This document shows positions 2,710 through 62,848 of a stretch of 64,000 nucleotides of DNA, piece after piece; position 1 is the stretch's first letter, and each line of letters opens with the position of its first letter. The position numbers and the translations under genes were made by a program. The stretch is from Pristiophorus japonicus (Eukaryota): NCBI RefSeq assembly GCF_044704955.1, contig NC_091990.1, positions 30,256,001 to 30,320,000 on the forward strand, read 5' to 3'. The notes under the pieces are model-generated. The model made no database searches, had not been told where the DNA came from, and was given only the letters and a program-made list of their open reading frames with translations.

Positions 2710-2847
2710 TCACATATCCGTAGTGCTACACTGGCAGGAGGAGTCGCTGTTGGACTTTCTGCTCCTCTGATACCATCTGCTTACATCGCAATGATAATCG
2801 GCTTGATTACTGGTGTTCTCTGCACCCTGGGGTTCAAGTACCTGAAG
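2710..2847 (+). CDS. RHCE: Rh30 (RHD/RHCE-type) coding exon, equivalent to human exon 6
   Basis: tacag|TCA...AAG|gtaatg; 138 nt; SHIRSATLAGGVAVGLSAPLIPSAYIAMIIGLITGVLCTLGFKYLK carries the Rh/Amt 'ATLAGGVAVG' motif. Upstream exons lie outside the window. Confidence 0.93.
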
Positions 2848-3604
2848 GTAATGTTGAAAAATAAATCATTAAATGTAACATGTGCTTATGGATGTACAGT
2901 TATTCCATCTATTTTTATTTACTGTCTTTCTCTGTTGAAATATACATCAAAGTTGATAATTAAGGATGCAGGACCATGGGGCAGTAAGACTTCAGGAGTT
3001 GTTGGTCAACAGCAAACAATCCTGTCAAGTCCAATCGGTGAATCCAATCTTTTTTTGTAGGTTTTTAAGTAAACCTCGAGTCTAGGAACTAAAGCGTCAA
3101 TATAGCTGATCTTACATTGACTGGCTGCCCCACATAAATTCACAAGTGTATCTTTTAAACTGATGCAACCAATTTACTGGATTTTATGACACTTACTGTT
3201 TATACACAGATGGCTATCAGAAACAGATTGTAGAAAGTCTGCTCGAGAAGCTTTCTGGCTAAGCAAGCCAAATGCAGTGAGCATATGTCAGTGTAAGAAT
3301 GCATTCATCCATGCAGACCGCTAGGTCCCAGGTTTGATCTCTGGTTTGTGCTGACTTGGCTCGCCATAACTGTGGAGCAACTGGGCTGCTATAACAAGGC
3401 AGGGAAAAAATATCAGCCAGAGTTCCTACTCCTGATCGCTGATCAGTGACTCGTACTGGAGAGTGCACAAGTGTGGAGAGCAGGAATATGTTTGGCTCTG
3501 GTGCACATCCAGGTACCTGCTGATACTCAGTGTCAAAGCTTACATGTGAAGAATGGCCAGTTGTATCAGGTACCAGAGGGCTGCAGGCGTATGTGAAACT
3601 GTAC

Positions 3605-3966
3605 TCTTCTTAGGCATGACTTGCTGCCACACTAAAATGAATTCTCAGGTGACTGTTGAGACCAATGCGGGATCTACAGTCTCGGTCACAGGTGGGGTAG
3701 ACGGTGGTTGGAGGGACGGGTGGGTTGGGTGCTTAATTTGCCGTATGCTCCTTCTGCTGTTTGTGCTTGGCTTCCACATGTTCCCAGCGAAGAGACTCAA
3801 AGTGTTCGGCGCCTTCTCGGATGCATCTCCTCCACTTTGAGCAGTCTTGGGCCAGGGAATCCCAAGAGTCGGCGGGAATGTTACATTTTTTCAAGGAGGC
3901 TTTGAGGGTGTCCTTGAAGCATTTTCTCTGCCCTCCTGGGGCTCGCCTGCCGTGATGTAGCTCGGA
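3605..3966 (-). mobile_element. 5'-truncated RTE-clade LINE (3' end)
   Basis: ELHHGRRAPGGQRKCFKDTLKASLKKCNI...W..LAQD.SKWR is a typical RTE C-terminus; 16-bp TSD GTATGTGAAACTGTAC at 3589-3604 and 3967-3982. Confidence 0.85.
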
Positions 3967-4217
3967 GTATGTGAAACTGTACACAAACAAGAGTCAACAC
4001 TTTCAGCGGAGAAGGGGATAAAATCTTTTTTTTAAATCTTTTTTTTTTAAATGCATTCAATATCAAACCGATCTCATTTTCACTGCCAAAGATCCATTCT
4101 TGCATTTGCCAGTCTTAATTTGTGTCAATCTTATTCGGAGTACTCTAAAGTATTGTTTGGTTTCCTCTCTTTGTGCATGTGTGCAGACAACGCCTAACAA
4201 TTTAACATCTCTTCTAG

Positions 4218-4342
4218 GCCATGTTTCAATTATATTTGGGTGTGCATGATACCTGTGGGGTTTTATATACCCATGCTTTGCCTGGAGTAATAGGAGGCAT
4301 AGTATACATCATCTTACTTTCCATAAGTGATGATTTGCAAAG
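4218..4342 (+). CDS. RHCE: Rh30 coding exon (exon 7 equivalent)
   Basis: ttctag|GCC...AAG|gtatgt; 125 nt, ends in phase 2; AMFQLYLGVHDTCGVLYTHALPGVIGGIVYIILLSISDDLQ matches the Rh DTCG..H.LPG motif. Confidence 0.92.
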
Positions 4343-24345: not shown

Positions 24346-24391
24346 TTACTGCCACAGATCTTCTGTACGTCCAAACTTGAACACCAGGCCC
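24346..24391 (-). CDS. TMEM50A: TMEM50A last coding exon
   Basis: ttgcag|G GGC...CAG TAA; GLVFKFGRTEDLWQ* (TMEM50A-type C-terminus). The six exons sum to 480 nt = 159 aa + stop. Confidence 0.95.
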
Positions 24392-24523
24392 CTGCAAGAA
24401 ATGAGACATTTCATGAGCAAAAGATTAAGAAAAAGATTTTGTATTTTAGTTGCTTAGAATTAGTGTTTAAAAGTTTTAGAAATAGACCTTGTGTAGACTT
24501 TACACGACTGCAAATATACTTAC

Positions 24524-24584
24524 CCAAAGAAGATAAATGCATTTTGGAAGAAGACCGCTATACCAGGGTAAACATCAGACCTTT
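24524..24584 (-). CDS. TMEM50A: TMEM50A coding exon 5
   Basis: ctttag|AA...GG|gtaagt; 61 nt; QRSDVYPGIAVFFQNAFIFFG. Confidence 0.95.
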
Positions 24585-25718
24585 CTAAAGAAGGAAAAGA
24601 AAATCAAAAATCATTTTTATTAGCTGAAAAAAATACTGAAACACAGAACCAACAAAAACTTGCATTTATATAGCGCCTACAACTTGAATAGACACAATTG
24701 CGTTCAAAACGGAGGGATATTTTTCCAAGTCATTGATACGTAGACACTGATATCCCAACAGATGCTTTAGTAGATTTATTTGGCGTTAAATGTTTGTGTT
24801 ATGGATGGTGGCAACTTTAAAGAAAAGGATTTGCATTGACAACACTTTTCACATCCTCATGATGTCCCAAAGCACTTGAAGCACACAAATTACTTCAGAA
24901 ATTAAGTCCCTGTTGTGTAGGCAAACGTTTACAACAAAGGTCCTACAAATGAGATCAGTTAATCCACTTTGGTGGTGATGGTTGAAGAAGAAATGTTGGG
25001 CAAGACACTGAGCCAAGATGACACTTGTTCAAATACACAAGAAAAGCTACCTCTACTGGAGTGATAAACTGTGTATTTGGGACTGCAAGGAACTCTAGAA
25101 TTCATCTGCATACCAAGACTGAGTTTGGGTAAAAATCATGTTTCCCCCTCTTCAAAAAGTTACCATGAAGACAGGCAAGAGAAATCATTAGTGGCTTTGC
25201 ACTCAGTCAAAATTGCAGCTCAACTAGATTGGGTGATGAACATGACAACGGTGAAGATTTTTTTCTTGCACTGACTGGAAAAAAAATCAATTTTTTGGGA
25301 ACAGGATATACAATTTCAAATCCCTGTAATGTACTGTAACTACTGTTTCTCCACCCCCAGCCACCAAGTGCAATTAAAAAAAATCATGCAGGTATTGCTG
25401 AACTGTGCAGTATTCAGCAAGTACATACACCGATACAAAGTCCAATCTTAACTCAGCCTGAGGTTTAACCCCAAAATGTATGAAAAAAAACAAAAATTAA
25501 TTAGCCACAGTTCTCTGTGATTACAAACAACTCGTGATCAATCTATGTGCTCTTACTTTCTTTTTAATCTTTAGGAGGCATTGACAGAGAAGTGACCCAA
25601 TGACTCGACAAAAGCGAGCAATAAATCACACCTAATTATCTGTGTTTCAGTATCAGTCAGGCATGGGACTCAATAAGTGAGTTTTCAAACAGCAGATTAG
25701 AGGAATTACTTGCAATCA

Positions 25719-25886
<168 letters not shown>

Positions 25887-26575
25887 TTAAAATATACAGC
25901 AGCAACTTTTTAATAATGCAGTCTTCAGGAATCTTTCAAAAAGTATGGTACAACCAGATGGGCGTTATAGACAGGATTCTCTATTAATAAAGTCATAAAC
26001 AACACGAGTTATATAACATTGTGACAAGCTCTTTTATCAATCATACTTGCCACACAGTACCTTTCAACTATGACGAAAGGACAAGCAAAGTGTTTTCAAT
26101 GGAAGAACAGGTTGCAGATATAATGACTTTCCGGAGCCAGTTAGGCAAACTAGTGGATAAGCAAATGCATAACTGAGACACATTGCCCTCTGGCTGCTAC
26201 AAAGGTGAGCAGATCCACAAGCATGTCCTCCATTAGGTGGCAGAACTCAAATTTCAAATAAAGATGGACAGGGTACAGATGCAGCACACTCTTCATTGGT
26301 TACAAAAGTGGGGAAGAAAAACATTGATATTTTTTATATAAATTTAAAAGTTGATGAATGTTATTTATGTATTTAGATTCTCATTTGTCTGTTTGTAAAC
26401 TGCGTATGTTAAAGCAGTTTTGAAACAAATGATTCAGACAGAGTTTGATTAAAGGGAATCGTAACCCATACAATCAGAATAGAAACAAAATGGCAAAAGG
26501 CCCAGAAAAAACAGAATTAGAACAGAATTTAACCAGAATCAGCCTCATACAGATAGTAGACTTCACCTTATGTTA

Positions 26576-26695
<120 letters not shown>

Positions 26696-26919
26696 TCATT
26701 AGGATTAGAATAAGATTGAGAATTCATGCATGTGAAACAAGTCAACAATTTAGTACTGTTTCCCTTTGGCAGACTAGGAAAGACGAGTGCATAATTTTAA
26801 AACATTACATACAAGTGCAACTCACGTTTCATACATGTTGTGCAAGCATATCACTGAGTACTGAGGAAATGCAGCCCTTCTGCATCCCTGTGGAATTGTG
26901 CTGTTGGGGCAAGGGGACT

Positions 26920-27620
26920 TAGGCACAGCTGCCAATGGTGGGGTGAAGGGAGTAGGCAAATATGGACGATGTCAGAGGTGGAAGTAGGCAGTCCTGGTGA
27001 TGCAGAGGATAGATGCTAAAGTCAGGGTCAGATAGGACACCAAGGTTTCAAACAGTCCGATTCAGCCCAGGACAGTGGCCAAGGATGGAGATGGAATCGG
27101 TGGCTTTTGTGGCCGGGGCTGCAGACAATGGCTTCAGTTTTTCCAATGTTTAATTGAAGGGAGTTTCGGCCCATCGAGGACTGAATGTCGGACAACCAAT
27201 TTGACAAAGAGGCAGTGGAGAGTTTGAGTGAGGTGATGGGGAGGTACAGCTGGACATTGTTAGTGTACATCAGGAACCTGAAGTTATGTCTTCGGACTGA
27301 GGTCGCCGAGGGACAACATGTAGATGAGAAATAGGCAGGGGCCAAGGATAGATCCTTGAGGGACTCGAGGAAAACAGTACAGAAAGGCTATTGTAGGAGA
27401 TTCTCTGGCTATGACTGGGTGAGAGGAGTGGTACCAAGTGAGGGCCACTCAGCTAACAACAGAGAGGCAAGGCATTAGAGGAGGATAGTGTGGTCAACTG
27501 GCTGCAGAATAGTCAAAAAGGATGAGGAAGGAGAGTGCACAATGTCACACAGGATGTTATTTGTGACTATTAGAACCATTGCAGTTCTGGGGGCGGAAAC
27601 CTGATATGGAGAGATTCAAA
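26920..27620 (-). mobile_element. Degenerate L2-clade LINE RT fragment
   Basis: MYTNNVQLYL (degenerate YADDTQLY) ... LSDIQSSMGRNSLQLNIGKTEAIV. A further L2-like fragment lies at about 32490-33080. Confidence 0.7.
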
Positions 27621-27659
27621 CATAGTTATACAAAGATAGGTATGGATTTGGGAGATGAC

Positions 27660-28425
27660 AAAAAACACGAAGGCAGAACATTATCTGAATGGTGGCAGAT
27701 TAGGAAAAGGGAAGGTGCAACGAGACCTGGGTGTCATGGTTCATCAGTCATTGAAAGTTGGTATACAGGTACAGCAGGTGGTGAAGGCAAATGGTATGTT
27801 GGCCTTCATAGCTAGGGAATTTGAGTATAGGAGCAGGGAGGTCTTACTGCAGTTGTACAGGGCCTTGGTGAGGCCTCACCTGGAATATTGTGTTCAGTTT
27901 TGGTTTCCTAATCTGAGGAAGGACGTTCTTGCTATTGAGGGAGTGCAGCGAAGGTTCACCAGACTGATTCCAGGGATGGCTGGACTGACATGAGGAGAGA
28001 CTGGATCAACTGGGCCTTTATACACTGGAGTTTAGAAGGATGAGAGGGGATCTCATAGAAACATCTAAGATTCTGATGGGACGGGACAGGTTAGATGCAG
28101 GAAGAATGTTCCCGATGTTGGGGGAAGTCCAGAACCAGGGAACACGGTCTTAGGATAAGGGGTAGGCCATTTAGGACTGAGATGAGGAGAAACTTCTTCA
28201 CTCAGAGAGTTGTTAACCTGTGGAATTCCCTGCCGCAGAGATTCGTTGATGCCAGTCATTGGATATATTCAAGAGGGAGTTAGTTATGGCCCTTACGGCT
28301 AAAGGGATCAAGGGGTATGGAGAGAAAGCGGGAAAGGGGTACGGAGGCGAATGATCACATTGAATAGTGGTGCAGACTCGAAGGGCTGAATGGTCTACTC
28401 CTGCATCTATTTTCTATGTTTCTAT
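27660..28425 (+). mobile_element. 5'-truncated CR1 in a TMEM50A intron
   Basis: YLNGGRLGKG...[11 protein letters not shown]...; TTTCTATG tail. Confidence 0.9.
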
Positions 28426-28475
28426 GACAACACGTTCAAGGACTGGAATGTCACTATAAATCTAATTTCTACTTA

Positions 28476-28589
<114 letters not shown>

Positions 28590-29489
28590 CTAAAGATACA
28601 AAGTGCTTCAAAATTCCATAAGTGGATGGTTAAGTAAAATTTAGTATTCATTTTCTCTAATTCACATGATTGGAAAATTCCCAAGTACAAATAAAAATAT
28701 CTTGGGGGAAAAACAAAGTTAGCAGATAAGGCACAACAAAAATAGTTCACCCATAGAGAGTAAACCCACACAGACAGAAACTCCAGATTCAATCCCACAG
28801 CTGCATCATTAGCTGCTCTAAGCCAAGGCATCAGTAGCACTGTTACAATTTGCCTCAGTCCCAGTCCCCTAGATTGGGATAAGCAGACTGGATTCCTGCT
28901 CTTGATCATAATAGATACCTTTACATGTAGTAGCTATGTACAGTTTTTGGTTGAGGAGGAGATAGGCTTGGCTATGACAATCCCATGGTCAAACAGTCTG
29001 CTGACACTCAAGGCTCACATACGAATATTAGCTTGAGTGACGTACCAGAGGATACCCAGTATCTATGCAATCAAATCAGCAAAGTGTTAATTCTTCAGGA
29101 GAGAAAAAGAGGGACGACATTTTAGAGGGTGGAAGAGAAGGGGAAAAACAAATGATTTATTTATGTATGTAGTATAGAAGTGATTAGGCTTCAAGTAATA
29201 TTCAACATACTGGACTCAACTAACTCAGCACACACTTCATATTTAGTGCTCCACTCAAATGTTTAGATGCTGTACCAACACAATAATGTACGTAACTTCA
29301 GTGATAATGATGCTACTCAATCATGGAACACAACAGAATAATTTAAACAGCGTTAGGAGGATTAACTAGGCGAATTCTGAGTGCAACATGCTCTAGAGCT
29401 TGGTTAGTGTCAGGTATTAGTGCTTCTGCAATTACATACAAATCTTGTACCTACTCTATTCCAAATCATCACTTCTATAATGATAATTA

Positions 29490-30325
<836 letters not shown>

Positions 30326-32140: not shown

Positions 32141-33909
32141 CAAAGAACTTGCATAGAAAGTGCCTTATTCACATCTTTAGGGCATCAAGTGCCAATGAAT
32201 GCTTTTTGAAGTGTAGTTACTGTTGTTAAATAGGCAATCACCAGTAATAAGAGTCAGCATCCAAGTTACACACAGCAAGATTCAACAAACATCAAAGTAG
32301 GGGTTGATCAGTCAGTCAGTCAGTGTGGGGCAGTGAAACAAAAAATGTGAAGTGGGGAATGTTGGCCAAGACATCAGGGGATTTCTCAACTCATCCAAGT
32401 GGAGCTGAGTCCATGATCAGATCAGCCATGATACTGATGGCAGAACAGGCTCGAGGGGCCATATGGCCTACTCCTGTTCCTATTTCTTATGTTATGAGAT
32501 ATCACAAGGGTGGTCAAATATGTGAGTTTTGAAAAGGGCAGCAAAACAGAGGTGGGGCCAGCAGGTTTGGTGAAGCCCAGAGCCGAAACAACTAAAGGCA
32601 CATTCACCAATGGTGGGGCGCAGGCAGAATACACAAACTGAAAGAATCAGAAGGGTTCCCAGGGAAGGGAAACATTGTAAGGCTGGAGGAGGATACAGAA
32701 ATAGGGAGGGGCAAGACCATGAAGCGCAGGGGAGGGAGGGGGGGGGGGGGGGGTGGTGCAAGATTGCTGAAAGACTGGGAGGCAGTGTAGGTGATCAAGG
32801 ACAGGGGGGGGGGGGGGGGAGAAAGGGGGTGGTGATGCAGGTAGAATACATGCAACAGAGTCTTGGATGAGCTGAAGTTTACAGATAATATAGGATGAGA
32901 GGCCAGGACAGCATTGAAAGTCAAATCTGGAGGGGACAAATGCATGGATCAGGATTTCTGTGACAGGTGAGCTGAGCAGGCAATGAAATCAGAGAATATC
33001 ATAAGCTCCGCTCGGGGTTAAATAGGACACCAATGAGCTGGAGACAATGATCAGAAAGGAATTGGTGGCAGGGGTTTGGGTTTGTGGTGACAAAGGCTAG
33101 AGATAAACGTGATAGTAAATTAGAGAGCACAATGCTCAAACAGGAAATCAACTAGTTCAAATTATAAAAATGTAATAATGAATGCTTTCAATGCAGTAAT
33201 ATCAGCATTATTCATCAGTTTGGTGTTACTGAAGGGGCAACAACAATTAAGACATACCAGCATATTTTAAAAAGGTAGTCACTGCACTCAAAATAAATAC
33301 CAGTTCCTTCCACTTTAGAATAGATATTCCAGAACACAGTAAAATACATACAAATCTTAAGTTAACTAAATAACCCAAATCATTAATACAATCAACAAAA
33401 AAAATGAATACCATTTGCTTAAATCATGAGCGGCAACTTCTTGTCAGTTATATGAAAAAATGATCCATTAGATAAATTAATGTTAGCTAAATTATTAGGA
33501 GGATGCAAAGCAGTCAGAGGATTTTACTGAGACGAGTCGGGAAAGTGAGTGAGTAGGCCTTGCAGTGCTCTCGGGATTTATAGTCCTGCAGGATTAGCAC
33601 TCGGTTGTGAGTGGCTGGAAGCCCGTGCTCCAAAACACGACACTCCCTATGCAAATAGCGCTGGCTGTGCGCATGCTCATTGCGCCCAGACTTCCACACA
33701 CAGCTGCGACAATGTCTTTAATTAGATAACAACCGCCCAGTCCACCTTCATTCACAACGGCAACGACGCCCGAAGACTGCACATCGTGAAAGAAAACATC
33801 CGAAATAAAATCGTTAAACCTTAAAACGAACAAAACCGAGAAATTAAAGACAATCCATACTTGCTTATCCACCGATTAAAAACGCTCACAAACAATGCTC
33901 GCTCTTCTC

Positions 33910-34290
33910 TCAGCAGCGAACCCTAACGCGCATGCCTATTAAGGCCCGGAATATCACGTGACTCCTGACGTCACGTCCAATGACGCATCCTTTAAAAAAT
34001 ATATAAACGACGCCTGATGATCTTGCGGCGCATGCGCTTCAGCAGCCAAGTGCGAGTGCGCATGCCTATTAGGGCATGAATCATCATGTGATCCGTGACG
34101 TCACGTCGAATGACGTAATCCTTTTAAAAAAACTGTAAAAATGCTCCAGGTGACCTTACGGCGCTTGCGCGTCAGCAGTGAAGTGGCAACGCGCATGCCT
34201 ATTCCATCAAATGGCCTGGCCCATCAAGTGACGTCACGACGATTGACGCCTTCAACAAAGGACCAAGTGACCTTACGACGCATGTGCACA
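33910..34290. promoter_or_regulatory. CpG-rich promoter built from three ~130-bp tandem units with NRF1 and CRE motifs; probably bidirectional (TMEM50A / SNRPC)
   Basis: GCGCATGCCTATT at 33928, 34058 and 34191; TGACGTCA at 33966, 34096 and 34229; perfect GCGCATGCGC at 34028; TCACGTGAC E-box near 33954. Lies between two divergently oriented genes. Confidence 0.8.
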
Positions 34291-34324
34291 ACACCACCAA
34301 CAGCAGCAGCGCCGCGCCGACAAA

Positions 34325-34810
34325 ATGCCGAAGTATTACTGCGATTACTGTGATACTTACCTCACACACGACTCCCCGTCTGTCCGCAAAACGCACTGCG
34401 AGGGCCGTAAGCACAAAGAGAACGTCAAGGACTATTACCAGAAATGGATGGAGGAGCAGGCCCAAAGCCTGATCGACAAAACGACAGCCGCTTTCCGCCA
34501 GGGTAAAATCCCTCCCACCGCGCCGTTCCCGGCGCCGGCCGGCCCGCCTCCCGCCGGGGCCGCCATCCCTCCGCCGCCGGGCAATGTCGGCGTGCCGCCG
34601 CCGCGCCCCGCCATCTTGCCGGGGCCGCCGATGGGAGGGCCGCCCATGATGCCGATGATGGGCCCGGCGCCGCCCGGGATGATGCTGGTGGGCCACGGGA
34701 TGAGACCGCCGATCGGAGGCCCGATGCCCATGATGCCGGGCCCGATGATGGGGCCGCACCGGCCGATGATGGTGCCGTCCAGGCCGGGATTGATCCGGTC
34801 GGGCAGATGA
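34325..34810 (+). CDS. SNRPC: U1 snRNP protein C (U1-C), intact intronless ORF, 161 aa; probable retrogene
   Basis: [57 protein letters not shown] (matrin-type zinc finger) plus the Pro/Gly/Met-rich tail; one continuous ORF; Kozak-like AAAATG. Confidence 0.96.
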
Positions 34811-35538
34811 GCAGTGCCGTGAGGGAGTTTATTCAGTGCAGTTTTCCCGTACCCCCTGAAGCCAAGGCAGTCGGAGGGCAGCGTCGCCGTGTGAAGATCA
34901 GATTTGTAACCGTCTTTTGTTGTCAATTGCGGCATTGCATCTCCACCGCCATCTTTATTGCCACCAGCCCGCTGCGGGTATTACCAGCGCATTTCTGGCT
35001 TGTAACCCAGCGATTTATTGTAGTCTTCATTAGTGCAACTTTCACCTTTTGTAAATGCCCGGTTGAGAGCGAGGGTTTCACTGATTCTGGAATTCTACAG
35101 CTTTTGCAGAAAACAGACGGCTTGCGTAACATTTTTCTGTTTTTTTAATATATATGCCCCATGTGTTTAGCAGATGAACGGCAATCTGGCTTTCTAATTG
35201 TCCATTCATTTCTGGTCTTCCTGTGCCACATGCCATTCCTTGGCCGGAAAGAGGATGGCTGGTTGGAAATCCTCGAGTTCCCATACAGTTCTAAATTTTG
35301 TTTCTTATCCACTAAATCAAAGATTCGCGGCTGTGGCTGACCCATTTGACTGTGCAAATGCATTTAGTCATAAAATATTGGATTAAATTGTATGTGGATG
35401 TTCTTATTTCTTTCTCCATAATGGTTTTGAGTAACTGAACCAACCAGCTGAAAAACTTAACTTGGAAGTGCACTGATATTAAACGTAACAATTTGTTTAG
35501 TTGCATTCTTTTGCAATTAATTTAGTGGAAATCTCTAT

Positions 35539-35544
35539 AATAAA
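35539..35544 (+). terminator. Candidate polyadenylation signal of SNRPC
   Basis: AATAAA about 730 nt after the stop, followed by a T/GT-rich tract; a second AATAAA near 35590. Confidence 0.5.
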
Positions 35545-36716
35545 CTTCATACTTTGGACAGACCTGGTTTCTTTTGCTGTCTTATAAAAAATAAAATGAA
35601 GCTGTTATTTTGGACCTGAAACGTGGTGTAAAGAAACAGAAATAATTGTTCATCTCAGATACTGTATTAATAGGTGAGTTGATTGCCCAAAAGTGGAAGG
35701 AATTTGTAAATGGGATTATCTCATTTTGAGAGAAGCTTATTGTGCAATTTTAGACTAGTTTCTTGTACAAATGTTGTCAAATTATCTAATTGGGGATGTG
35801 ATTATGCTAGAGCTGTTGATTTGTGTGTATTTATAAGAGAATGAGGGTTGCCCTATGTAGATTATATTCTATATTCTAACATACTTATTGTATATAATTA
35901 AAAGAAATGAGACAGGACAGTTTTATTCCACCAAAAGCGTTTAAGACACAGCAGTATTGCGTAACTCCTGCTGTCAAAAGTGAAGCTATATAGAATAGAA
36001 TGTTTCTAACCTATCTTGTGTCTGTCTCAAACCTTTCCACTACAAGTGCCACATTCTGCCTTTGCTGCAATGACATAAAACCAGCATTTCTGCACCAGCG
36101 TGCTATTTGCTATTTTCCCACTCCAATAAGTAAGGTCTCCAGTGTTAGCATTCATTCCTCGAGTCAGAAAATCAAGGGTTCAGAGACTTCAGCATATAAT
36201 TTAACCTAACATTTTAATACTGCTGTCTAAGGTGTGTTCTTTTGGATGAGATGATAAACTGAGTTTGTCTCCTCGAGTTGTAAAAGATCCCATGAAATAT
36301 TTGAAGAGGAGTATCCCTTGGCTAATCTCACCAAAACATTATCTGGTCATGTATCTTTGCTGTTTTGGCTGCTGTACTTCCCTACATTACAAGCGAATAC
36401 GCTTCAAAGTACTTCAGTTGGCTGTGACGTGTTTTGAGATTGTGAAATGTGCTTTTTTTTTAATATTCATTCACGGAATGTAGGCGTTACTGGCGAGGTC
36501 AGCATTTATTGCCCTAATTCCCCATGAGAAGCTGGTTTGGAGCCACCTTATGCAACTGAGTGGCTGGTGAGCCTTTTCAGAGGGCAGTTAAGAGTCAACC
36601 ACATTGCTGTGGGTCTGGAGTCACACATAGGCCAGACTGGGTAAGGACGGCAGATTTCCTTCCCTAAAGGACATTAGTGAACCAGATGGGTTTTTACGAC
36701 AATCCTGTAGTTTTAT

Positions 36717-37519
36717 GGGCCCAAGTTTCCGATATTCGCTAGAACAGTGCACCTCTGAGAGGCCTGCCTATTTTGTGGAATGAAAGGCGCACCAAAAACT
36801 TACCTTGCAATTCTCAGAGTGCAGCAGGCCTGTTCAGCAATCGGCGCAACACAGCACAACAGCGGGGAGGCGGAGCTACAGCCCTGGGCCAAAAAGAGTG
36901 CCGGCAGCTGCGCACATGTGCAGTGGAGTCTGCGCGTGTGTGCGCAGTAGCTCCTGGCCCCCAGGTTCTGTGTGCGTGTGCTACTGGCTGTGTGGGAGGG
37001 GCCTGAAGCATGCAGCTCCTAGCCCTTGCTCCTGGAGCGGACAGAGTGCCAATTTCCAGTCTGCAGCACCAGTCCCTAGCCCTGGTCGGGCTCTCGGTGC
37101 TCCCGAACGGGTAGGTGAAGTGGGAACTTTTTATTTATTGATTTATCATTTATTATTGATGGTTATTTTTAAAAGTGAAGTGTTTAATGCTTTGGAAAAT
37201 CCCCTAACTTCTCCCTTTAAACCCCCCCCCCGCCCCCCAAAACAAAATCTCTGGCTTACCTGCGCCTAATTCTAAAGTGTACGCAAGGTTTTTCTGAGCG
37301 TACAAAAGTCAACAATTAGTCCATTCTAAGTTAGTTTGGAGTAACTTTTCGGTGCCTAAACTTGCAAAACAGGCATAAGTGGCTGGTATTGCCCCCTTTT
37401 GGGGAAAAAAACGAAACTAACTCACTAGAACTGGAGCAAACTAAATGCCGAGAATTGCAATTTCTAAGATACTCCAAATTAAACCAAAAAAAATAGGAGC
37501 AACTCCATCTGAAACTTGG
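36717..37519. mobile_element. MITE-like DNA element (PIF/Harbinger-like termini)
   Basis: Starts GGGCCCAAGTTTC and ends GAAACTTGG (inverted termini, right end clipped); non-coding. The flanks join as ...ttttatgg|tcaccattact. Confidence 0.55.
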
Positions 37520-59371: not shown

Positions 59372-62300
59372 TGTCATGTATTTAACTGTCATTGTAACCC
59401 ATGTATAAACTGACCTAAGTTGTACACCGTGAGAACATTGACCACTAGGTGGTGAACTTGTGGGAGATACTCCTAACCTGGACTTTCAGGTATAAAAGGG
59501 AAAGCTCCAACCACCTTCATCACTTCAGTGCTGGCAAATAAAGGTTACTGGTCACAGAGTGACCTTCTCTCAAGTATGGGCCTCGTGTGCATTTATACTG
59601 TAGAGTAAGGACATATTATTGGCGACGAGAAACTGGGATTTAAACCACACGAGCATGGCCACTAGCAGCACAGACGTGAGTTACTGTGTTGGTGATGATT
59701 GGGACGATTTTATTGAGAGACTACAGCAACGTTTCATCACTAAGGAATGGCTGGGACAGGATTCGGCCGACAAACACAGGGCTCATCTCCTGACGGTTTG
59801 TGGATCCAGGACATACTCCCTGATGAAGGACCTTCTAGCGCCAGAGAAGCCGGCGGACAAGACGTTCAAAGAGCTCAGTAAGTTGATCACATAAGTGATT
59901 CACATAAACCCGGACACCAGGCCAGTACACCACAAGGCCAGAGTGGTGCCGTACGTGATGCGGGAAAAGATAGAAGGCGAATTGGACCGCCTGCTGAGGG
60001 AAGTCATCATCTCGCCAGTCGAATTCAGTGATTGGGCGAGCCCGATTGTGCCAGTGCTCAAGGTGGATGGGTCGGCCAGGATATGTGGTGATTACAAGGC
60101 CACCATCAATTGGGTGTCACTCCAAGACCAGTACCCGCTACCGAGAGTGGAGGACCTCTTTGCGACGCTATCCGGTGGCAAACTTTTTTCAAAATTGGAC
60201 CAGACCTCAGCTTACATGACCCAGGAGCTGGCGCGTGAGTCGAAGAAGCTGACCACCATCACGATATACAAGGGGTTGTTTGAGTACAACAGATGTCCGT
60301 TTGGGATTCGCTCGGCCGCCGCGATCTTTCTACGAAATATGGAAAGCCTCCTCAAGTCGATTCCAAGGACAGTGGTTTTTCAAGACGACATCCTCATCAC
60401 GGGTTGTGATACTGAAGAAGACTTCCGCAACCTGGAGGAGGTGCTACGCAGACTGGACTGGGTAGGTCTGCGACTGAAAAAGTCAAAGTGCGTCTTCCTA
60501 GCTCCAGAGATAGAATTCCTGGGGATGAGGGTAGCAGCAGACGGGATCAGACTACTGCGTCCAAAACGGAAGCGATCCAGAGAGCACCCAGACCCGGTAA
60601 CACAACGGAGCTACGTTCGTTCCTGGGGCTCCTGAACTATTTTGGTAACTTTCTTCCCAAATTGAGCACGCTGTTAGAGCCGCTACACGTGCTCCTACGC
60701 AAAGGTCGCGAATGGGTCTGGGGGGACAGCCAGGAAAGGGCTTTTGATAGAGCACGAAATTTGTTATGCTCCAACAATCTGTTAATGCTATATGACCCAT
60801 GTAAGAAACTTGTTTTAACGTGCGACGCGTCGTCCTATGGGGTCGGGTGTGTGTTGCAGCATTTTAATGCCAAGGGTCAGTTACAGCTGGTAGCTTATGC
60901 CTCCAGAAGTCTGTCCCAGGCAGAACGGGGCTACGGGATGGTAGAAAAGGAAGCGCTTGCATGTGTATATACTGTAAAAAAAATGCACTGGTGCCTGTTT
61001 GGCAGGAAATTTGAGCTGGAGACAGATCACAAACCCCTAACATCCCTTTTGGCTGACAACAAGGCCATAAATGCATCGGCCCGCATACAGAGATGGGCAC
61101 TCACGTTAGCCGCCTATGACTATACAATTCGGCACAGACCGGGCACTGAAAACTGCGCCGATGCACTCAACAGGCTTCCACTAGCCACCACCGAGGGGGC
61201 AACTGAGCGTGCTGCTGAGATGGTCATGGCTGTTGAAGCTTTCAAAAGCGAAGGCTCACCAGTGATAGCCCGTCAGATTAAAGTCTGGACAAATAGAGAC
61301 CCGCTATTGTCTCTAGTCAAGAAATGTGTCCTGAATGGGAACTGGACAGCCACGTACGGGGCATGCCCTGAGGAATTCAAACCATTTCACAGTCGCAAGG
61401 ATGAACTCTTGATTCAGGCCGATTGCCTACTATGGGGAAACCGAGTAGTCATGCCCCAGATGGGCAGAGAGATGTTCATCAGAGAACTCCACAATGAGCA
61501 CCCGGGCATTGTCATGGTGAAGGCAATTGCCAGGTCACACATTTGGTGGCCAGGGATAGATGCAGACCTGGAACTTTGAGTTCGCAGGTACAACACGTGT
61601 GCCCAGCTGGGCGATGCACCCAGGGAAGCCCCCCTTAGCTCCTGGCCATGACCCGCCAAGCCATGGTCACGCATCCATGTGGACTACGCAGGTCCTTTCA
61701 TGGGAAAAATGTTTTTGGTTGTAGTAGACGCCTACTCCAAATGGATCGAGTGTGACATTCTCAATTCAAGCACATCCTCTGCCACGGTAGAAAGTCTACG
61801 GGCAATGTTCGCCGCCCATGGTCTACCGGACATCTTGGTCAGCGACAATGGCGCGTGCTTTACAAGCATTGAATTCCAGGACTTCATGGCAGGAAATGGT
61901 ATCAACCATGTCAGAACGGCACCGTTCAAGCCGGCCTCAAACGGCCAGGTGGAACGAGCAGTGCAGATAATCAAACGGGATGCTCAGAATTCAAGGGGGT
62001 TCCCTTCAAAGCCGCTTATCACGCCTCCTGTTGGCCAATAGATCCCGACGACACTCGCTCACAGGGGTCCCACCCGCAGAGCTGCTAATGAAAAGGATGC
62101 TCAAAACCAGGTTATCCCTTATACACCCCACCATGAAAGAAATTGTTGAGAGCAGGCGCCAGTCACAATGTGACTACCATGACAGGAATGCGAGGGCACG
62201 ATGTATTGATGTTAATGACCCTGTCTTTGTCCTCAACGACGCTACAGGGCCTAAATGGCTAGCAGGCACTGTGATTGCCAAAGAGGGGAATAGGATTCTG

Positions 62301-62848
62301 GTAGTTAAACTTACCAATGGACAAATCTGCCGCAAACACGTGGATCAAACAAAAAGGAGGTTCAGCAACCCCATAGAAGAAGCAGAGGAAGAACACGATG
62401 TAGAGTTCACTCCTCCACAGGTGACCGAAACACCGGAACCAAGTGGAGGAGAGCCCTGTAGGCAGGCCTGAGGCACCGCAAACAACAGACACTCAGGCCA
62501 GTGCCCAACAACCTGAGCCCCAACTCAGGCGCTCTACAAGGGAGCGTAAACCACCAGAGCGACTTAACCTGTGATCCCAATAAGACTTTGGGGGGAGGTG
62601 ATGTCAGGTATTTAACTGTCATTGTAACCCATGTATAAACTGACCTAAGTTGTACACCGTGAGAACATTGACCACTAGGTGGTGAACTTGTGGGAGACAC
62701 TCCTAACCTGGACTTTCAGGTATAAAAGGGGAAGCTCCATCCACCTTCATCACTTCAGTGCTGGCAAATAAAGGTTACTGGTCACAGAGTGACCGTCTCT
62801 CAAGTATGGGCCTCGTGTGCATTTATATTGTATAGTAAGGACAGATTA
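59372..62848 (+). mobile_element. Ty3/Gypsy LTR retrotransposon with both LTRs; internally deleted and frameshifted
   Basis: 247-bp LTRs at 59372-59618 and 62602-62848; PBS TGGCGACGAG; PPT ggggggagg; 5-bp TSD TTTTC; gag N-terminus, then RT (FQDD), RNase H (TCDAS, ETDHKPL) and integrase (SDNG, SNGQVER) in Gypsy order. Confidence 0.95.

Follow-up and report, generated by a model that had tools for sequence, protein, structure and literature searches.

The U1-C (SNRPC) gene of Pristiophorus japonicus, located in a 64-kb stretch of DNA that was analysed as a whole (the window), is likely an orphan retrogene that lies beside TMEM50A and has replaced a lost intron-containing parent. The replacement probably took place in the chondrichthyan stem, ahead of the split between sharks and chimaeras.

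The U1-C gene and its neighbours

The features of the window are as follows.

2713..4334, plus strand, RH-family exons 2713-2859 and 4221-4334 (Pfam PF00909 in this genome), a context marker
24349..29621, minus strand, TMEM50A coding exons (29523-29621, 28476-28589, 26597-26665, 25724-25814, ~24520-24584, and the last near 24349-24390)
33500..35000, no strand, CpG island taking in exon 1 of TMEM50A, the promoter and the ORF of U1-C, from CpG counts
33860..33936, minus strand, TMEM50A non-coding exon 1, minimum extent (joint 29621/33860, CT..AC, in X5 and X7)
33928..34290, no strand, shared promoter region of three tandem ~130-133-bp modules (starts 33928, 34058 and 34191)
34290..34324, plus strand, U1-C 5′ leader, minimum extent, from contig cover
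34325..34810, plus strand, coding sequence of U1-C (SNRPC), 161 aa in one exon (ORF; same as database protein P0125)
34811..35915, plus strand, U1-C 3′ UTR, unspliced, from sequence and contig cover

The complete 161-aa ORF that had originally been predicted was confirmed at 34325-34810, with no stops, frameshifts or introns in the genomic DNA, where a DNA contig spans 32846-36594. Pfam zf-U1 was found in this ORF (E = 6e-23, 80.8 bits, cut-off 22), and human U1-C aligned with it from end to end (E = 4e-70). The zinc finger consists of C6-C9-H24-H30, followed by a helix to about residue 61 and a Pro/Met/Gly-rich tail. The ORF is, as had been noted, very rich in GC and CpG (GC 67%, GC3 83%, CpG o/e 1.04), and the 97 CpGs in 34001-35000, versus 5 to 52 in each other kb, make up the strongest island of the window.

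Poly(A) signals are present at 35539 (AATAAA, 729 nt past the stop codon), 35590 (AATAAA) and 35897 (ATTAAA), at which alternative 3′ ends may be formed. Since contigs extend to 35846/35896, toward the ATTAAA, the gene end first set at 35600 was too short. The ~730-nt, repeat-free 3′ region described with it does carry its AATAAA, but a single diverged copy of 120 nt from it is present on another contig (C36), the only match beyond the gene itself in a genome DNA search with U1-C. This copy was rejected as a parent remnant, being 120 nt of UTR only with no coding trace in the surrounding 20 kb; U1-C mRNA was probably retroposed again to give it. Part of the 3′ UTR (35054-35512) shows about 87% likeness to that of a second species. 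Within 34811-37000 there is no stretch of eight or more A, and no 8-mer was common to 34230-34325 and 35540-35960, in agreement with the earlier statement that poly(A) remnant and TSD are missing. Such traces decay in old retrogenes; their absence leaves less direct proof of retroposition, which therefore rests on intron absence and relocation, and does not lower the retrogene reading itself.

Five spliced junctions on the minus strand, joining exons that agree with the database protein named TMEM50A, placed exon 1 of that gene from 33860 to at least 33936 and so upheld the predicted head-to-head arrangement with U1-C. The three promoter modules, 73-77% alike, each carry GCGCATGC (which we take to be NRF1-like), TGACGTCA (presumably a CRE) and an E-box-like hexamer; this three-fold tandem module was missing from the original account of the promoter. 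On the far side of TMEM50A, the RH-family gene lies tail-to-tail with it, and the order RH-TMEM50A-RSRP1-like is preserved on contig C14. The RSRP1-like gene, about 37 kb downstream of U1-C on the same strand, was identified from a weak Pfam match (E = 0.198, below cut-off) and has an RS-rich exon, itself without Pfam match. A strong donor (AG/GTGAGT) is located inside the U1-C UTR at 35674. A U1-C gene nested in, or bicistronic with, RSRP1 was nevertheless rejected because contigs of X5 and X6 cross this donor unbroken, the plus strand has 9 copies of this 8-mer across 144 kb, and the RSRP1-like gene appears, from sequence only, to have its own CCAAT/GC/TATA/YY1 promoter and donor ~3.8-4.0 kb past the window end. 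A rare spliced form may exist, exon 2 lying beyond both ranges covered by reads.

Transcription and purifying selection

All five TMEM50A GT-AG junctions in range were contained in runs X5 and X7, versus none in DNA run X1; the RNA type of X5-X9 is not on record, and X5 and X7 are RNA-like by these spliced junctions, none of which was seen in X6. X5 covers U1-C from 34340 to 35896 in one unspliced contig with no differences. Cover starts at 34290 (X6), 34313 (X7) and 34310 (X8 and X9), in contigs that cannot fix the true start and give no strand or level; X5-X7 belong to one study and X8-X9 to one study. The lack of contig cover at 33940-34289 in X6-X9 carries no evidential weight. Being covered in runs with spliced TMEM50A, the U1-C gene is apparently transcribed.

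Compared with organism B, 25 of 25 listed coding differences were synonymous (neutral P = 2e-16, with 40 of the 91 total differences listed). Up to 6 further differences may lie in the X8 coding contig, and even if all of these were non-synonymous pN/pS would stay below 0.08; pS for the second species was 0.22. The protein is 93-98% identical to those of 5 other chondrichthyans. The dN/dS check proposed beforehand thus gave dN far below dS, not a ratio near 1, and U1-C is under strong purifying selection. Together with the RNA-type cover, the synonymous differences support the proposal that a functional retrogene at the TMEM50A CpG island was kept by selection. The contact residues named for human U1-C in PMC4383343, T11, Y12, T14, H15, S19, R21, K22, H24, R28 and K29, are all retained. 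Conservation and single copy suggest that the shark protein is incorporated into U1 snRNP.

Single copy and the empty ancestral slot

Searching the 5.9-Gb assembly with the full U1-C protein gave 1 match among the best 150 of 169-174 candidates scored, and the 62-aa N-terminus at E ≤ 10 gave U1-C itself plus 2 matches of 32-35% identity. A degenerate pattern of 26 bases, taken from the conserved helix and allowing up to 1 mismatch, hit a single place in the 5.92 Gb, against 0 for the control. Pfam zf-U1 was found at 6 places, again among the best 150 of 169-174 candidates; the 5 others, at 27-47% identity, were not accepted as exons of a parent, since they look like other zinc fingers, of ZMAT/WBP4 type, or like chance matches. 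As a check of sensitivity, the same genome search recovered 27-49-aa exons of TMEM50 and TAF11, and the single-copy claim is bounded by assembly completeness. The tBLASTn-type search that had been called for thus revealed no intron-containing parent in this genome.

Human SNRPC is multi-exon, and bony vertebrates presumably keep the gene between ILRUN and BLTP3A. The three genes have been placed in one chromosome 6 locus, the order itself not being given (PMC6448992). In P. japonicus, ILRUN, BLTP3A and TAF11 are kept together, in order, on contig C17, while U1-C is on C14:

C17:80,108,029, minus strand, ILRUN ATG
C17:80,192,620, plus strand, BLTP3A ATG (located by ORF scan and Pfam; the PF12624 profile search missed it)
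C17, ~80.38 Mb, minus strand, TAF11

Within the ILRUN-BLTP3A interval (84.6 kb, 0 N) the best tblastn match for an SNRPC remnant had an E of 0.18 and was low-complexity, and blastn for SNRPC or flank DNA over 320 kb around the old locus gave a best match of 18 nt. A parent hidden in an assembly gap was rejected, as the two 200-N gaps fall beyond the interval, within introns of ILRUN and BLTP3A. With no other coding copy found and the slot empty, the suggestion that the retrocopy replaced the parental gene is supported, and the gene described here would have to be the general U1-C.

Other cartilaginous fishes and the age of the proposed replacement

The 7 chondrichthyan U1-C sequences were separated from all the others by one branch in 100% of the bootstrap trees, and E26 was present in 9 of the 164 U1-C-like proteins compared, all 9 chondrichthyan. 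In the five species with both records, chimaera included, U1-C and BLTP3A are on different contigs, as told from contig size, without positive control and with assembly versions or breaks able to mislead:

Chiloscyllium plagiosum, U1-C contig 51.7 Mb, BLTP3A contig 53.3 Mb
Amblyraja, U1-C contig 36.9 Mb, BLTP3A contig 40.6 Mb
Rhinoraja, U1-C contig 32.8 Mb, BLTP3A contig 36.9 Mb
Scyliorhinus torazame, U1-C contig 426 Mb, BLTP3A contig 191 Mb
Callorhinchus, U1-C contig 22.4 Mb, BLTP3A contig 13.3 Mb

Intron absence and TMEM50A adjacency are established for P. japonicus only. It is conceivable, if unlikely, that a genuine replacement took place only recently or more than once, with separate retrocopies in several shark and ray lineages. 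Insertion is not datable from protein identity, and the UTR piece on C36 is probably another retroposition of U1-C mRNA. In Narcine, the sole other species with TMEM50A and U1-C-type records, TMEM50A sits on a 179.7-Mb contig and the U1-C-type record, a degenerate 111-aa 'U1-C-like' copy, on one of 376 Mb. However, the separation from BLTP3A in all five species, the conservation of the 3′ UTR in a species with pS 0.22, and the complete loss of any trace of the parent, which argues for great age, speak for a single early replacement.

Alternative origins

Less probable still is relocation of the gene as DNA or through rearrangement, combined with in-place intron loss by recombination with its own cDNA, rather than insertion of a new retrocopy. 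This would be consistent with the missing poly(A) and TSD and with the long conserved 3′ UTR, and would account for the single copy too, but it requires two rare events. Both neighbourhoods (C17 and C14) kept their gene order and U1-C alone moved, no flanking DNA in common with the old locus was found, and every intron is gone, including one in codon 3, whereas in-place intron loss tends to spare 5′ introns.

That a multi-exon parent persists outside the assembly, the window gene being a second, possibly germline-biased U1-C, is very improbable. Assemblies of 5.9 Gb can miss GC-rich genes, and our searches scored the best 150 of 169-174 candidates; yet the interval expected to hold the parent is gap-free and empty, X6 and X7 at 80% likeness reveal no diverged second coding form, and the plain-named 'U1 small nuclear ribonucleoprotein C' of five other species is of the same type as the window gene. 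No chondrichthyan S26-type U1-C was found among the best 120 of 771 matches and parts of the protein clusters. The suggestion in the original prediction of a second, possibly germline-specific U1 snRNP variant that could shift 5′ splice-site choice is not supported, as no other coding copy was found and the RNA-contact residues are unchanged. Nor was a broadly expressed parent found alongside the gene, as would be expected for a germline-specific retrogene of the RBMXL2 kind.

Predicted N-termini depart from standard U1-C at residue 3/4 in 27 and at residue 17/18 in 9 of the 164 proteins, including hagfish (P0076 and P0129) and lamprey (P0127) models and none of the 9 chondrichthyan ones. Breaks in the jawless-fish models fall at residues where bony-vertebrate models break too, taken here as ancestral intron sites; this points to U1-C introns older than jawed vertebrates and to intron loss as the derived state. 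An intronless gene at TMEM50A as the ancestral jawed-vertebrate state, changed in bony vertebrates, is hardly tenable given these matching breaks. None of the observations named in advance as refuting the original prediction was made: contig cover is present in RNA-type runs, dN is well under dS, orthologues are intact, and jawless-fish models suggest ancestral introns.

Under the orphan-retrogene reading, spliced SNRPC mRNA would have been reverse-transcribed, probably by a LINE, and the cDNA inserted between the divergent genes TMEM50A and RSRP1. There, judging from the anatomy, U1-C would be driven by a housekeeping-type CpG promoter that it shares with TMEM50A, its head-to-head neighbour. 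In this assembly the ILRUN-BLTP3A interval retains no trace of the multi-exon parent, and the copy is under strong purifying selection. From what is known of the family, the protein would act as ordinary U1-C, binding U1-70K/SmD3 and stabilising, through backbone contacts, the duplex of U1 snRNA and 5′ splice site.

Comparison with known systems

No published report of a shark SNRPC retrogene beside TMEM50A was found among the papers listed, though subscription journals, gene-browser records or supplements may hold one; in PMC8792474, tmem50a appears only as a BLAST hit, and the main text of PMC4772013 makes no mention of SNRPC. If true, this would be a very old case of a retrocopy taking over fully from an essential gene of the core spliceosome, in a lineage other than the mammals whose orphans have been catalogued. 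The relocation would provide a rare-genomic-change marker for cartilaginous fishes, account for a synteny break able to mislead orthology calls, and offer a natural test of a housekeeping gene swapping its regulation (bidirectional promoter, no introns) with function unchanged. A new splicing mechanism is not indicated by the present evidence. We regard it as a long shot that for more than 400 My an entire class of vertebrates has relied, for recognising 5′ splice sites, on a retro-replaced U1-C whose own production needs no splicing, and that its class-specific E26/R58 changes near the RNA-facing R28/K29 retune how far mismatched 5′ splice sites are tolerated in the very long introns of sharks.

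Similar to human U1-C/SNRPC (PDB 6qx9, 4pjo; PMC4383343), the shark protein has 58 of the first 61 residues identical, a Pro-rich tail, and the zinc ligands and RNA/SmD3 contacts preserved; it differs by F4Y, S26E and Q58R, and its gene by the lack of introns and a different chromosome. Y4 is also found in lamprey, hagfish and acorn worm, whereas S26E and Q58R are chondrichthyan-specific among the proteins compared. Mammalian 'U1-C-like' processed pseudogenes, judging from names and divergence, would likewise be intronless copies of U1-C mRNA, but they drift beside a live parent, whereas the shark copy is the sole one, with 0 aa changes in 25 listed differences. Retrocopies on bidirectional promoters number 11 in human and 12 in mouse, head-to-head within 2 kb, e.g. 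HTR7P1-HEBP1 (PMC4772013); U1-C/TMEM50A resembles these pairs, with about 350 bp between observed 5′ ends and one CpG island, except that in the shark three tandem copies of a ~131-bp module make up the shared region. Orphan retrogenes form an established class (Ciomborowska et al., PMC3548309; Carelli et al., PMC4772013), with mammalian RNF113A, MARS2, TRMT12 and UTP3 as examples, a CpG-island promoter in 9 of 10 orphans (PMC4772013), and parent loss soon after retroposition. Shark U1-C would be a further case, sharing with them an intronless gene, a lost parent, strong purifying selection and a CpG-island promoter, and differing from those surveyed in human and other mammals in its cartilaginous fish host and in encoding a core U1 snRNP subunit.

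Structure and annotation of the U1-C gene

The U1-C gene, its 3′ signals and the first exon of its neighbor were located as follows.

34325–34810, plus strand, U1-C (SNRPC) ORF, 161 aa, uninterrupted
35539 (AATAAA), 35590 (AATAAA) and 35897 (ATTAAA), poly(A) signals 3′ of U1-C
33860 to at least 33936, minus strand, TMEM50A exon 1

The ORF aligned with human U1-C over its full length (E 4e-70), contained the zf-U1 domain (Pfam) and had 67% GC, 83% GC3 and a CpG o/e of 1.04, lying within the strongest CpG island of the window, which bore out the intact, intronless and GC/CpG-rich frame of the original prediction. As it had also stated, neither a poly(A) run nor a target-site repeat was found at the gene. 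Because an identical protein (P0125) is present in NCBI/UniRef, the gene is already annotated, and its origin and status, not its existence, are at issue.

Neighborhood and promoter

The gene order on C14, the contig carrying the window, was RH (+), TMEM50A (−), U1-C (+) and an RSRP1-like gene (+, ~37 kb further), with TMEM50A identified by its exons matching database TMEM50A. Between TMEM50A exon 1 and the first U1-C cover (34290) lay three tandem modules of 130–133 bp, 73–77% alike, every one containing GCGCATGC (NRF1-like) and TGACGTCA (CRE-like). The TMEM50A/U1-C promoter (33928–34290) is a tandem triplication of an ~131-bp NRF1/E-box/CRE-like module, and no further copy was found in the 464 kb compared. 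In chicken and human, RHCE and three genes per side keep their order, TMEM50A, RSRP1 and SYF2 being named, and SNRPC goes unmentioned in the excerpted account of this neighborhood (PMC11188259).

The RSRP1-like gene (C14:30323740–30329980) had its own CCAAT/GC/TATA/YY1 promoter and began with a short exon; another of its exons bore a tandem SSTSSSGSSR-type repeat ahead of the RS region. Many CR1/L2-type LINE fragments were scattered across the window, and pol remnants of a Gypsy-type LTR element occupied 59895–62470. On another contig (C12:169230215–169231450), a nearly full-length ammonium transporter lay in a single frame (PF00909 3–380 of 399, within an open frame of 480 aa); it lacked introns, in contrast to the Rh genes, and could be an Amt-type gene, a retrocopy or a contaminant.

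Copy number and the ancestral locus

In the 5.92-Gb assembly, which is possibly incomplete, the full-length U1-C protein matched one place (best 150 candidates scored), its first 62 residues (E≤10) matched the gene itself plus two sequences of 32–35% identity, and a degenerate 26-base pattern based on the invariant helix, with ≤1 mismatch, matched one place. Pfam zf-U1 gave 6 places (best 150 candidates scored), 5 being unrelated fingers or chance. Since the same tool recovered 27–49-aa exons of TMEM50 and TAF11 as a sensitivity control, the parent's 36-aa exon should have been detected; no intron-containing parent was found in the genome. A DNA search with the locus returned itself and one 120-nt, 82%-identical 3′ UTR piece (C36:36716133–36716249), repeat-interrupted and within an intron of a minus-strand gene with a BAZ2-like exon; this piece is probably a truncated secondary retrocopy.

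Human SNRPC lies between ILRUN (C6orf106) and BLTP3A (UHRF1BP1), adjoining TAF11. These three neighbors kept that order and orientation on shark contig C17, where the ILRUN-to-BLTP3A start-codon interval spanned 84.6 kb with 0 N, and no U1-C remnant above noise was found in 320 kb (tblastn with nine U1-C proteins, blastn with the locus). Thus, with a sole U1-C coding copy found and this interval empty, the predicted replacement of the parent holds, while the alternative of a second, possibly germline-specific variant was not supported, no other coding copy being found. Excerpts of PMC6448992 place SNRPC, UHRF1BP1 and C6orf106 at one chromosome 6 locus.

The interval also contained a broken endogenous-retrovirus-like element (C17:80176000–80181500) with zinc knuckle, protease, RNase H and an env-like frame.

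Age and polarity

The standard N-terminus was left at residue 3/4 in 27 and at 17/18 in 9 of 164 U1-C-like proteins, hagfish and lamprey included, and in 0/9 chondrichthyan proteins. These departures are probably exon-border marks in gene models; their presence in hagfish and lamprey and absence in chondrichthyans indicate introns older than jawed vertebrates and a derived intronless state, arguing against an ancestral intronless gene, the state that would have undone the original prediction. In a 23-row tree (23 of the 164 proteins), a branch separated the seven chondrichthyan rows from the rest in every bootstrap replicate, although their fork was drawn with 84/92 support.

U1-C and BLTP3A were on unequally sized contigs in 5/5 other species with both records, chimaera included, a comparison that has no positive control and bears on separation from BLTP3A, not on adjacency to TMEM50A. 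A TMEM50A contig was on record for Narcine alone; its degenerate 111-aa U1-C-like record (P0088, N. bancroftii), carrying the chondrichthyan E26, was on a different one, and no intact Narcine U1-C was among the matches listed. The Callorhinchus model (P0046) had an in-frame extension upstream of the ATG and skipped residues ~60–104, not at ancestral exon borders, which is weakly consistent with a gene of one exon and a frameshift in the assembly. That one event preceded the divergence of chimaeras and sharks appears quite probable.

Expression and constraint

Nine sequencing runs contain the stretch; none is recorded as RNA, and four may be the assembly source. Runs X5 and X7 (study P2) contained five GT-AG junctions of TMEM50A missing from DNA run X1, from which we infer that both are RNA-derived; none was seen in X6 of the same study. 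A single X5 contig crossed 34340–35896 with 0 differences, and X6 and X7 covered the ORF and UTR piecewise, such cover indicating presence only, not strand, ends, level or tissue. A consensus 5′ splice site (AG|GTGAGT) at 35674 in the distal 3′ UTR, between proximal and distal poly(A) signals, was left unspliced in X5 and X6; this motif could be chance, or a putative U1-binding site affecting 3′ end choice. A link between U1-C and RSRP1 was dropped, given this unspliced donor and the separate promoter of the RSRP1-like gene.

Runs X8 and X9 (study P3) of a second species, organism B, provided a contig spanning both ORF and UTR. The 25 coding differences listed were all synonymous third positions (40 of 91 rows listed; pS 0.22, pN 0, neutral P 2e-16), with at most 6 further, unlisted differences in the X8 coding contig, in line with the predicted constraint. 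Among the matches listed, the closest named proteins were from sharks, skates and chimaera, those of Chiloscyllium, Scyliorhinus, Rhinoraja, Amblyraja and Callorhinchus being 93–98% identical. Shark and human U1-C differed in the first 61 residues at F4Y, S26E and Q58R, none among the contacts named in excerpts of PMC4383343, which also shows that U1-C does not touch the bases and that its effect is limited to fine-tuning mismatched sites. Jawless fishes have G and an acorn worm has Q at position 26, so this position tolerates change.

Proposed origin and comparison with known retrogenes

U1-C mRNA was likely retrocopied by a putative LINE agent, and the window has many RT frames of the CR1/L2 type. 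The retrocopy would have landed next to the TMEM50A promoter and gained broad expression from it; the parent, made redundant, would then have decayed, leaving the retrocopy-encoded protein to work as ordinary U1-C. The known U1C/U1-70K feedback works through the splicing of U1-70K and the stability of the U1C protein (PMC3798272); introns in U1-C would therefore be dispensable for it.

No published account of this retrogene was found in literature listings (supplements and subscription journals excluded). The finding is well supported as real and fits a known class. Orphan retrogenes, as excerpts of PMC3548309 and PMC4772013 describe them, have lost their parent, are under strong constraint, and use a CpG-island promoter, sometimes head-to-head. 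Shark U1-C agrees with them in every testable feature save the poly(A)/TSD marks. Such marks vanish from old retrogenes, and by analogy shark U1-C appears to work as known orphan retrogenes do.
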